NCBI RefSeq assembly: GCF_041248615.1
Contig: NZ_CP158426.1
Length of the DNA stretch: 64,000 nucleotides
From: Escherichia coli
Lineage (GTDB): Bacteria; Pseudomonadota; Gammaproteobacteria; Enterobacterales; Enterobacteriaceae
Direction: 5' to 3' (one strand)
The translations under genes were made by a program, and so were the position numbers. The notes under the pieces are model-generated. The model was given only the letters and a program-made list of their open reading frames with translations. It was not told where the DNA came from and ran no database searches. This document shows, in pieces, positions 21,381-24,713 of the stretch; within the stretch, counting starts at the first letter, position 1; the number at the start of each line of letters is the position of its first letter.

Positions 21381-22691
21381 ATGTTTGATTCGACTTTAAA
21401 TCCGTTATGGCAGCGTTACATCCTCGCCGTTCAGGAGGAGGTAAAACCGGCGCTGGGGTGTACTGAACCGATTTCACTGGCGCTGGCGGCGGCGGTTGCT
21501 GCGGCAGAACTGGAAGGTCCGGTTGAACGTGTAGAAGCCTGGGTTTCGCCAAATCTGATGAAGAACGGTCTGGGCGTCACCGTTCCCGGTACGGGAATGG
21601 TGGGGCTGCCAATTGCGGCGGCGCTGGGAGCGTTAGGTGGAAATGCTAACGCCGGGCTGGAAGTGCTGAAAGACGCAACTGCGCAGGCAATTGCCGATGC
21701 CAAAGCACTGCTGGCGGCGGGGAAAGTCTCAGTTAAGATCCAGGAACCTTGCGATGAAATCCTCTTCTCACGCGCCAAAGTCTGGAACGGTGATAAGTGG
21801 GCGTGTGTCACCATTGTCGGCGGGCATACCAACATTGTGCATATTGAGACGCACAATGGTGTGGTGTTTACCCAGCAGGCGTGTGTGACAGAGGGCGAGC
21901 AAGAGTCGCCGCTGACGGTGCTTTCCAGGACGACGCTGGCTGAGATCCTGAAGTTCGTCAATGAAGTCCCGTTTGCGGCGATCCGCTTTATTCTCGATTC
22001 TGCGAAGTTAAATTGTGCGTTATCGCAGGAAGGTTTGAGCGGTAACTGGGGGCTGCATATTGGTGCGACGCTGGAAAAACAGTGCGCGCGCGGTTTGCTG
22101 GCGAAAGATCTCTCTTCATCCATTGTGATTCGTACCAGCGCGGCATCCGATGCGCGTATGGGCGGCGCTACGCTTCCGGCAATGAGTAACTCCGGCTCGG
22201 GTAACCAGGGGATCACCGCAACAATGCCTGTGGTGGTGGTAGCAGAACACTTCGGAGCGGATGATGAACGGCTGGCGCGTGCGCTGATGCTTTCGCATTT
22301 GAGCGCGATTTACATCCATAACCAGTTACCGCGTTTGTCTGCGCTTTGTGCCGCAACGACCGCAGCAATGGGGGCCGCCGCCGGGATGGCATGGCTGGTG
22401 GATGGGCGTTATGAAACCATTTCGATGGCGATCAGCAGTATGATCGGCGATGTCAGCGGCATGATTTGCGATGGTGCGTCGAACAGCTGCGCGATGAAGG
22501 TTTCGACCAGTGCTTCGGCTGCGTGGAAAGCGGTGTTAATGGCGCTGGATGATACCGCCGTGACCGGCAATGAAGGGATCGTGGCGCATGATGTTGAGCA
22601 GTCGATTGCCAACCTGTGTGCGTTAGCAAGCCATTCGATGCAGCAAACGGATCGGCAGATTATCGAGATTATGGCGAGCAAGGCCAGATAA
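21381..22691 (+). CDS. cyuA: L-cysteine desulfidase (YhaM)
   Basis: 436 aa ORF, UPF0597/serine dehydratase-like family, downstream of cyuP. Confidence 0.88.
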
Positions 22692-22710
22692 ACGCCAGGT
22701 TTTGGGTATC

Positions 22711-22818
<108 letters not shown>

Positions 22819-22823
22819 TGTCT

Positions 22824-22988
22824 TTACGCGGTAGCTTCATCCTCGGCTAAACGCGTTTCAGCATCCGCGACGATGGCTTCCAGCTCGCTCAACATCTCTT
22901 CATAGCCAAAATTATTGGCGGTGCGAGCAGGTTCTTTCGCCACCACGGGCTTCACTGGCTGACGCTTTTTGGCCGATTTTTTACTCAT
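22824..22988 (-). CDS. yhaL: Small protein YhaL (54 aa)
   Basis: Absent from the ORF track (below its size cut-off); hand translation of the minus strand gives M(MM)SKKSAKKRQPVKPVVAKEPARTANNFGYEEMLSELEAIVADAETRLAEDEATA with AGGGAG Shine-Dalgarno. Confidence 0.7.
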   Translation of the reverse strand: MSKKSAKKRQPVKPVVAKEPARTANNFGYEEMLSELEAIVADAETRLAEDEATA

Positions 22989-23010
22989 CATCATCTCCCT
23001 GTAAAAACAA

Positions 23011-23712
23011 CTAGACAGGCAAATCTATCAGCAAAGCGCGCAGTGGGGAATCGGCAACCAGCGTAATGTTAGCCTCGTCACGAATAAACGCCCCATCACC
23101 GCAGGTCAGCGCCGCTTTCTCTTCATGATGCGTAAGTGCATGAAATTTCCCGTGAATCGATTGCAAATACGCGCGTGGCCCATGCAACTGGAAATTCGCA
23201 CTTTCGCCTTTGTCGAGCACAATATGATGCAGCCACACTTGCTGGCGCAATTGCAGGCTTCCCATCGCACCCTCTGGCGAGGCGATTAATTGCTGCTTGT
23301 CCATATTAAGCGCCAGCTTTTGAATCAGTGGATTCTCTCGCTGCGGGCAGGCATCCAGCCAAAGCTGCATTCGCGTTAACGGTTTGTCTTTGCTGAGATT
23401 GTGTTCGCTATAGCTGACACCCGGCTGGGTAGAGAGCAGCAACACCTCACCAGCGCTGGCCTGAACATGATTGCCTTCGCTGTCGCGATACTCTGCTTCT
23501 CCATCCAGAATCACATTTAAAATATCGACTTTGGGATAGGTTCGCGGCTGAAAGGCGGCACCTGGGGCCAGCACTTCCTGGTTAAGCACGCGCAGGGAGG
23601 CATAGCCTAACAATTTCGGGTCGAAGTAGTGTCCAAAGGAAAAAGTATACCGGGCCTGCAACCATCCGTAGTCTGCTTGTCCACACTGCCTGGCAGTTCG
23701 GGTAGTAATCAT
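23011..23712 (-). CDS. yhaK: Pirin-like bicupin protein
   Basis: 233 aa ORF, divergent from yhaJ. Confidence 0.88.
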   Translation of the reverse strand: MITTRTARQCGQADYGWLQARYTFSFGHYFDPKLLGYASLRVLNQEVLAPGAAFQPRTYPKVDILNVILDGEAEYRDSEGNHVQASAGEVLLLSTQPGVSYSEHNLSKDKPLTRMQLWLDACPQRENPLIQKLALNMDKQQLIASPEGAMGSLQLRQQVWLHHIVLDKGESANFQLHGPRAYLQSIHGKFHALTHHEEKAALTCGDGAFIRDEANITLVADSPLRALLIDLPV

Positions 23713-23816
23713 AATTCTTGACCTCTCTTTACTTCCTTTTATGGTAAGGGGCTGGACGCTACATTGTTAGCCAGATATTCTGCCCGGTATGTTCAAATTT
23801 CCTGAATGAGAACGAA

Positions 23817-24713
23817 ATGGCCAAAGAAAGGGCATTAACGCTGGAAGCACTACGGGTTATGGATGCGATCGATCGCCGGGGCAGTTTTGCGGCGGCGGCG
23901 GATGAGCTGGGACGCGTGCCTTCCGCACTTAGCTACACCATGCAAAAACTGGAAGAAGAGCTGGATGTGGTGCTGTTTGACCGCTCGGGCCATCGCACCA
24001 AATTCACTAATGTCGGGAGGATGTTGCTGGAGCGAGGGCGCGTTTTGCTGGAAGCCGCAGATAAACTGACTACCGATGCGGAAGCCCTCGCGCGCGGTTG
24101 GGAAACGCATCTCACCATTGTGACCGAGGCGCTGGTACCGACACCTGCCTTATTCCCGTTAATCGACAAACTGGCGGCAAAAGCCAATACCCAACTGGCA
24201 ATCATCACCGAAGTGCTGGCGGGGGCGTGGGAACGACTGGAGCAGGGGCGGGCGGATATCGTTATCGCGCCGGATATGCATTTTCGTTCCTCGTCGGAGA
24301 TCAACTCGCGCAAGCTCTATACCTTAATGAACGTCTACGTTGCCGCGCCTGATCACCCGATTCATCAGGAGCCGGAACCGTTATCTGAAGTGACGCGCGT
24401 GAAATATCGTGGAATTGCGGTAGCGGATACCGCTCGTGAGCGCCCGGTGTTGACCGTACAGCTGCTGGACAAACAGCCGCGCTTAACGGTGAGCACGATT
24501 GAAGATAAACGTCAGGCATTACTGGCGGGGCTTGGCGTGGCGACGATGCCGTATCCGATGGTCGAAAAAGATATTGCGGAAGGGCGGTTGCGTGTCGTCA
24601 GCCCGGAATCGACCAGCGAGATCGATATTATTATGGCCTGGCGTCGTGACAGTATGGGGGAAGCGAAATCCTGGTGTCTGCGGGAAATTCCCAAACTTTT
24701 TAGCGGAAAATAA
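23817..24713 (+). CDS. yhaJ: LysR-type transcriptional regulator
   Basis: 298 aa ORF with N-terminal LysR helix-turn-helix. Confidence 0.9.
   Translation: MAKERALTLEALRVMDAIDRRGSFAAAADELGRVPSALSYTMQKLEEELDVVLFDRSGHRTKFTNVGRMLLERGRVLLEAADKLTTDAEALARGWETHLTIVTEALVPTPALFPLIDKLAAKANTQLAIITEVLAGAWERLEQGRADIVIAPDMHFRSSSEINSRKLYTLMNVYVAAPDHPIHQEPEPLSEVTRVKYRGIAVADTARERPVLTVQLLDKQPRLTVSTIEDKRQALLAGLGVATMPYPMVEKDIAEGRLRVVSPESTSEIDIIMAWRRDSMGEAKSWCLREIPKLFSGK

Follow-up and report, generated by a model that had tools for sequence, protein, structure and literature searches.

YhaL, a conserved 54-residue protein encoded beside yhaK in Enterobacteriaceae: comparative evidence for translation and for an acidic helix resembling part of XseB

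Introduction

XseB is an 80-residue helical hairpin, ubiquitous in bacteria, that grips a helix of XseA in three-helix bundles and can bind differing XseA segments, contacting them at a few hydrophobic positions (PMC10835039). YhaL, the product of a small Escherichia coli gene, and XseB (PF02609, TIGR01280; PDB 8TXR, 1VP7) are both small, acidic and helical, with an M-x-K-K N-terminus. YhaL has a basic linker of 20–30 residues, which XseB lacks; its gene follows yhaK and is confined to the Enterobacteriaceae, whereas XseB is ubiquitous (PMC10835039). By analogy, docking of a helix onto the helix of a partner is a plausible mode of action common to the two proteins (PMC10835039).

A second comparison is with the small regulatory proteins of at most 50 amino acids (bioRxiv 10.1101/511675, PMC11429745). 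Like these, YhaL is short, associated with a stress regulon and overlooked by size thresholds; with 54 residues it narrowly exceeds the 50-residue limit of the class, and its annotation is of long standing. Many proteins of the class consist of a single transmembrane helix. YhaL differs from these in being soluble and charged. Like the proteins of the class, YhaL probably works through binding to a larger protein.

The neighbourhood of the gene is better described. YhaJ binds and activates the yhaK promoter in response to hydroquinone and products of 2,4-dinitrotoluene (DNT) (PMC5031710, PMC7315121), and deletion of yhaK has a strong phenotype, a 66-fold hyper-induction (PMC5031710). The gene yhaL itself is listed in the y-ome as uncharacterized and ‘followed by repeat sites’ (PMC11551758), forms with cyuA a convergent transcriptional-overlap pair that is a candidate excludon (PMC12288877), is mildly upregulated in long-term stationary phase (PMC7406224) and is truncated in one ofloxacin-evolved line (PMC12363166). 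No function for YhaL is reported in the literature searched, a literature search on ‘yhaKL’ returned nothing relevant, and the part of the proteome supplements of PMC8144880 that was consulted has an entry for neither yhaL nor yhaK. yhaL is thus a known gene for a conserved small protein whose function is uncharacterized.

Results

The yhaL reading frame and its start codon

The window, that is, the whole stretch of 64,000 nucleotides of E. coli DNA analysed here, carries a short reading frame on its minus strand between cyuA (21381-22691, plus strand) and yhaK (23011-23712, minus strand). The features at its ends are as follows.

22824..22988, minus strand: yhaL CDS of 54 codons starting at the third, conserved ATG, followed by a TAA stop at 22826-22824 (translation, RefSeq CDS, purifying selection)
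22989..22994, minus strand: two extra in-frame ATGs 5' of the conserved start (sequence)
22995..23000, minus strand: Shine-Dalgarno AGGGAG, with 6 nt between it and the third ATG (sequence)

Translation of 22824-22988 on the minus strand gave MSKKSAKKRQPVKPVVAKEPARTANNFGYEEMLSELEAIVADAETRLAEDEATA, 54 amino acids followed by a stop. A sequence-only reading had placed a 54-residue minus-strand ORF between cyuA and yhaK, had noted three ATGs and an AGGGAG motif, and had named the gene yhaL. Each of these elements is present in the sequence, and the name agrees with a RefSeq CDS at identical coordinates. A frameshift was looked for on re-reading, and a clean 54-residue product was obtained.

The RefSeq CDS, yhaL, ‘protein YhaL’ (WP_001306007.1), was found in genome NZ_AP022261.1, which is 100% identical to window positions 22600-23200 and annotates cyuA, yhaL, yhaK (pirin family) and yhaJ there. 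The window gene has the same coordinates, length and sequence as this annotated YhaL, listed in UniProt as P42625, an uncharacterized protein of E. coli K-12. A 601-base query spanning the locus matched many complete E. coli genomes at 100% identity, and at least 80% of it was present in 5389 of the 5426. Identity between window YhaL and other YhaL clusters of E. coli is 94–98%; the window protein has N25 where several of the other E. coli variants retrieved have K25, a one-residue difference. We conclude that 22824-22988 on the minus strand is yhaL, a genuine and already annotated protein-coding gene.

Beyond TAG, the stop codon of yhaK at 23013-23011, the minus strand reads ttgtttttac AGGGAG ATG ATG ATG AGT AAA. 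The three consecutive ATG triplets lie at 22994-22992, 22991-22989 and 22988-22986, with AGGGAG (23000-22995) 0, 3 and 6 nt ahead of the first, second and third, respectively. The minus-strand frame is uninterrupted over 22824..22994, giving 56 amino acids when counted from the first ATG. The two extra ATGs are confined to the Escherichia clade: in other genera the one start lies where E. coli has its third ATG, and their intergenic gap has no ATG. The position of the start is conserved across 48 loci, the codon itself being ATG in 25, GTG in 15 and TTG in eight, and a GGAG-type motif, mostly 6–8 nt 5' of the start, is the commonest arrangement among the orthologous loci. The spacing of AGGGAG and the single start in other genera make the annotated 54-residue product the best call. 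Judged by this comparison of loci, translation begins at the third ATG, served by the AGGGAG 6 nt upstream.

Selection for protein coding

In the conserved C-terminal core, pN was 0.11 and pS 0.84 between E. coli and Salmonella. Across six genera, the variable positions in the 27 core codons numbered 10, 6 and 23 at codon positions 1, 2 and 3, and in 54 distinct orthologous core DNAs the mean entropy at these positions was 0.34, 0.27 and 1.27 bits. The invariant leucine, alanine and isoleucine columns of the same 54 DNAs use six, four and three synonymous codons, respectively. Indels in the linker of the aligned YhaL homologs are always of whole codons. An Rfam search found no family overlapping the yhaL coding region. 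The comparative evidence is decisive: on the pattern of selection, from which translation is inferred, yhaL is clearly protein-coding. The follow-up thus provides a gene of the y-ome with firm comparative proof of translation from the third ATG.

An explanation of the conservation by an RNA element was considered and rejected. The only Rfam matches were sub-threshold ones to naRNA4, which we take to be a REP-derived family; they fall on the REP elements at 22711-22817 and none lies over the CDS.

Size cut-offs and the calling of small genes

The gene was missing from the original ORF list, whose default cut-off is 60 amino acids, and its ORF appears when the minimum is set to 20. It was missing because it is shorter than the cut-off, and for no other reason; the absence is a threshold artefact, and yhaL is in every standard E. 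coli annotation. Within 4.5 kb around yhaL, there are 29 ORFs of 30–59 amino acids, and yhaL alone is annotated. The yhaL ORF by itself is therefore no more than would be expected by chance, and a 30-codon threshold adds 28 unannotated ORFs in this region for one real gene. Lowering the cut-off is a poor remedy, as 28 of the 29 ORFs in this size range are not annotated genes.

The sequence-only reading had also taken the omission as a sign that small proteins in the window are under-called. As a trivial effect of a cut-off near 60 residues, this holds; beyond that it does not, since below 60 amino acids RefSeq adds only yqiM (27 aa), the sole other annotated CDS of this size in NZ_AP022261.1 over the parts of the window that are colinear with that genome, outside the extra segment of about 5.4 kb at 31380-36819 of the window. 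yqiM lies at about 30269-30352 on the minus strand, just downstream of yqjA, and is annotated as a 27-residue ‘hypothetical protein’.

Neighbouring genes and regulation

The features surrounding yhaL are as follows.

23011..23712, minus strand: yhaK, pirin-like bicupin, with a 22-nt gap before yhaL; putative yhaK-yhaL operon (ORF and annotation)
23713..23816, no strand assigned: yhaK-yhaJ interval, presumed source of the yhaL transcript (PMC7315121, PMC5031710), the yhaK-yhaL gap having no convincing promoter or terminator
23817..24713, plus strand: yhaJ, LysR-type activator of yhaK, divergently transcribed (annotation, conserved adjoining yhaK-yhaL)
22711..22817, no strand assigned: inverted REP pair (BIME) in the 132-nt convergent gap between yhaL and cyuA (inverted repeats, Rfam)

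Simple consensus scans of the 22-nt gap between yhaK and yhaL revealed no convincing promoter or terminator. A gap of this length devoid of promoter-like and terminator-like signals is what would be expected if yhaL were co-transcribed from the YhaJ-activated yhaK promoter. From the spacing and the consensus scans, yhaL is most likely co-transcribed with yhaK and thereby part of the YhaJ regulon. An internal yhaL promoter is not supported: the only promoter-like match, at 23005-22976, would start transcription inside the CDS, and matches were as numerous in shuffled sequence.

The 601-base query matched at a median of 26 sites in each E. coli genome, a number explained by the REP pair. This pair may act as a stabiliser of the mRNA 3' end or as a transcription barrier. 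The strong phenotype of yhaK deletion (PMC5031710) may arise in part from altered yhaL expression.

Phyletic distribution and synteny

Homologs of YhaL were found in Escherichia, Salmonella, Citrobacter, Enterobacter kobei, Cronobacter, Klebsiella, Raoultella, Kosakonia, Buttiauxella, Dryocola and others. YhaL is a 54-residue small protein of cytoplasmic type found in the Enterobacteriaceae only. In all 10 loci retrieved through divergent YhaL sequences, yhaJ (LysR) is divergent from a pirin gene, which is followed by the yhaL homolog after a gap of 21–35 nt, and this module of yhaJ and yhaK-yhaL is kept even where the 3' neighbour differs from cyuA. Window YhaL has the same arrangement, lying 22 nt downstream of yhaK with yhaJ divergent.

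The reverse test started from yhaK. One genome per species was scanned for a YhaK ortholog of at least 82% identity, which gave 80 loci. A YhaL-like ORF was present in 49 of these, always on the same strand and directly after yhaK, the gap being 13–62 nt with a median of 24 in the 48 loci with a scorable start. The remaining 31 species are cleanly without yhaL: past the yhaK stop comes a palindromic element, with the next gene beyond it. Such loci belong mainly to the Enterobacter cloacae complex, Lelliottia, Leclercia, Silvania and Cedecea, with Huaxiibacter and a few others. In the loci examined, yhaL never occurs without yhaK, while yhaK often occurs without yhaL. YhaK, absent its small neighbour in 31 of 80 species, does not need YhaL. 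The phyletic pattern of the gene is hence defined: it is restricted to the Enterobacteriaceae, always attached to yhaK, and missing in 31 of 80 species with YhaK. For a family present in one bacterial family at one locus, strict synteny could stem from vertical inheritance and not from functional coupling.

Three observations on individual loci were made. Palindromic repeats of the CCCTCTCCC...GGGAGAGGG type occupy the place of yhaL in the loci lacking it (L019-L092, for example L030 at 2700-2860). Enterobacter kobei retains a YhaL homolog despite its absence in the cloacae complex. On one metagenomic contig (L010), a 90-residue ORF without a Pfam match stands at 2699-2971 in the place of yhaK, upstream of an intact yhaL homolog; yhaK may be truncated or pseudogenised there and yhaL retained.

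A basic tail and an invariant acidic helix

The protein divides into two parts.

22905..22988, minus strand: codons 1-28, Lys/Arg-rich N-terminus MSKKSAKKRQ and a variable linker predicted to be disordered (AF2, charge +7)
22830..22904, minus strand: codons 29-53, acidic amphipathic helix with the invariant ML-x-ELEAIV, resembling XseB helix 1 (AF2, alignment, hhalign)

Prediction by AF2 with the family alignment gave no secondary structure for residues 1-28 (pLDDT 61–75) and a single helix for residues 29-53 (block pLDDT 91–94). The charges are split in the same way, +7 over residues 1-28 and -8 over residues 29-54, in agreement with the earlier description of a basic/acidic peptide. One heptad register puts Y29, L33, L36, V40, A43 and L47 at a/d positions, which are 88% hydrophobic; the hydrophobic moment of the helix was unexceptional when compared with shuffled sequences (p = 0.11).

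In 43 aligned members, a Lys/Arg-rich N-terminus (MSKK..KK) is followed by a variable linker of 15–30 residues, by the almost invariant core [FL]-[GS]-[YF]-[ED]-[ED]-M-L-x-E-L-E-A-I-V-x-[DE]-A-x-x-R-L and by an acidic tail. The window protein has FGYEEMLSELEAIV in its C-terminal helix, as demanded by the family pattern [FL]-[GS]-[YF]-[ED]-[ED]-M-L-x-E-L-E-A-I-[VI].

YhaL homologs of Kosakonia and relatives (L056, L064, L066, L068, L087, L093) are without the Lys/Arg-rich N-terminus and keep the invariant helix. They start, for example, with MSSTMN or MNSSVTKISFES, often without an obvious Shine-Dalgarno sequence. That this lineage keeps the helix and not the basic N-terminus indicates that the helix is the functional core. 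One invariant acidic helix thus provides a defined functional core for an uncharacterized gene.

Searches of Pfam and of PDB sequences, with the single protein and with profiles, gave nothing usable. The lone PDB match, a gyrase helix at E = 5.3, was discarded as chance. Three long proteins, P0106 (2895 aa), P0129 (893 aa) and P0143 (273 aa), match the YhaL profile in five to eight separate stretches each; they are likely to be helical proteins built of repeats similar to ELEAI.

Resemblance to the first helix of XseB

The only NCBIfam matches for window YhaL were to XseB models, at 13.5–13.8 bits against cut-offs of 71–92 and hence sub-threshold. Among the 43 members, 17 match NF002141 (best E = 2e-4) and 15 match NF002140, with other members matching four further XseB models; the best E-value of any family member to an XseB model, 2e-4, is likewise sub-threshold. 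When the YhaL profile was compared by hhalign with E. coli XseB, the sequence of which was verified as that of PDB 8TXR, and with an XseB alignment, P was about 1e-4 and the probability 58–62%. The alignment pairs YhaL 27-43 (FGYEEMLSELEAIVADA) with XseB 9-25 (ASFEKALSELEQIVTRL), in helix 1, over 17 columns with eight identities. The invariant XseB residues F11, E12, L15, E17, L18 and E19 fall on Y/F29, E30, L33, E35, L36 and E37 of YhaL, and the helix-1 signature of XseB, F-E-x-x-L-x-E-L-E-x-I-V, is found in YhaL.

Other searches gave no such link. Pfam Exonuc_VII_S (PF02609) had no match to YhaL at E <= 10, no XseB chain appeared in PDB searches with YhaL, and an exhaustive search of 1.84 billion proteins with the YhaL profile yielded 76 matches at E <= 1e-3, of which the 48 inspected were all YhaL-like and none was XseB. 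The two-helix hairpin of about 80 residues is not found in YhaL, for which AF2 gives a single helix at 29-53 and which ends at residue 54. Lacking a second helix, YhaL cannot form the XseB hairpin. Membership of the XseB family was accordingly rejected, with a probability of about 58% over 17 columns and scores far below the cut-offs, and the resemblance was kept. YhaL falls outside the XseB family, but may function in the manner of half an XseB.

Discussion

The data show that yhaL is a real and conserved gene attached to yhaK, and that the constrained part of its product is a single amphipathic acidic helix. The best explanation overall, to which we assign a probability of roughly 85%, is that yhaL is a genuine protein-coding gene, most likely co-expressed within the YhaJ regulon, whose product would act by helix docking. 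The yhaL transcript would arise from the YhaJ-activated yhaK promoter, would be induced by hydroquinone and DNT metabolites, and would have the REP pair after the gene. The only strongly constrained part of the protein is the 25-residue acidic amphipathic helix with its heptad-like hydrophobic stripe. Such a lone helix is unable to fold by itself, and most likely docks, if need be after self-pairing, on a partner protein that offers it a helix or groove, in a manner analogous to the gripping of XseA by the helices of XseB. In this way, YhaL could tune the quinone/redox stress response through YhaK/YhaJ. The basic disordered tail would add electrostatic contacts, but is dispensable, being absent in Kosakonia. 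The most probable partner would be the co-expressed YhaK/YhaJ module, a tentative assignment to which we give somewhat less than even odds. As a whole, YhaL is most likely a partner protein of the YhaJ regulon that acts by helix docking.

It is alternatively conceivable that YhaL is an autonomous, self-associating coiled coil whose basic tail binds nucleic acid or the ribosome, with yhaK a mere neighbour. The sharp segregation of the basic tail (+7) from the acidic helix (-8), the heptad-like a/d stripe, the predicted disorder of the tail, the many yhaK genomes without yhaL and the rise of yhaL in long-term stationary phase (PMC7406224) are all in keeping with this proposal. Against it, the Kosakonia lineage has conserved the helix but not the basic N-terminus, so that nucleic-acid binding cannot be the core function. 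Moreover, yhaL was never found apart from yhaK, and Pfam and NCBIfam searches gave no similarity to a known nucleic-acid-binding family. We regard this alternative as unlikely.

The resemblance to XseB invites two further proposals. YhaL may descend from, or have converged on, the first helix of XseB and be a free-standing half-hairpin that grips YhaK, YhaJ or the XseA stalk by pairing with itself or with a partner helix, which we consider quite unlikely. If it were true, it would add a layer of small-protein control to the quinone/nitroaromatic regulon of YhaJ or a link to ExoVII-dependent DNA repair, and phenotypes of yhaK deletion might partly reflect altered yhaL expression.

The narrower proposal is that YhaL, as a shortened paralog or a mimic of XseB, places its own helix in XseB sites on the XseA stalk and modulates assembly or activity of ExoVII. 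XseB models are the recurring best match of the family, with P about 1e-4 by hhalign, all six invariant positions of XseB helix 1 have conserved counterparts in YhaL, the two proteins share the opening M-[PS]-K-K, and JGI automatic annotation calls some members ‘exonuclease VII small subunit’; XseB itself tolerates varied XseA segments (PMC10835039). The match nevertheless covers 17 columns only, at about 14 bits against curated cut-offs of 71–92, Pfam and PDB searches were without XseB, none was present among the 48 inspected of 76 profile matches, and a similar ELEAI helix was found by chance in a gyrase chain. YhaL also has no second helix, and a genomic link to xseA or xseB is absent. Loss of ExoVII sensitises cells to quinolones. 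A yhaL deletion was built in an ofloxacin study, and it is not listed with the knockouts whose tolerance changed (PMC12363166). Action of YhaL as an XseB mimic is thus very unlikely. The likeness to XseB helix 1 and the co-expression with YhaK under YhaJ provide a testable lead.

Finally, the idea that the ORF is untranslated, its conserved sequence being a non-coding part of the yhaK 3' UTR or its annotation being kept by habit, gains something from the 29 ORFs of 30–59 amino acids that arise by chance in the surrounding 4.5 kb, but is effectively refuted by the comparative data, that is, by a third-position entropy about four times higher and up to six synonymous codons for invariant residues, by pN far below pS, by indels that keep the frame, by a Shine-Dalgarno sequence and start position that are conserved while ATG, GTG and TTG interchange, and by the absence of Rfam families over the coding region.

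Other observations in the window

Compared with NZ_AP022261.1, to which it is otherwise nearly identical, the window carries an additional segment of about 5.4 kb at 31380-36819, with exuR and exuT on its two sides. The segment codes for a fimbrial operon of the CS1 type (alternate chaperone-usher), with a chaperone, a major subunit, an usher and a tip adhesin, the last two being placed as follows.

32984-35686: TcfC-like usher, 900 aa (CS1-type fimbrial operon)
35683-36762: CfaE/CblD tip adhesin (CS1-type fimbrial operon)

Of 5426 complete E. coli genomes, 1918 carry the fimbrial segment, only six of them at 99% identity or above. Elsewhere, garL is flagged as frameshifted in NZ_AP022261.1, and the matching stretch of the window, at about 4862-5631, is 99.3% identical.
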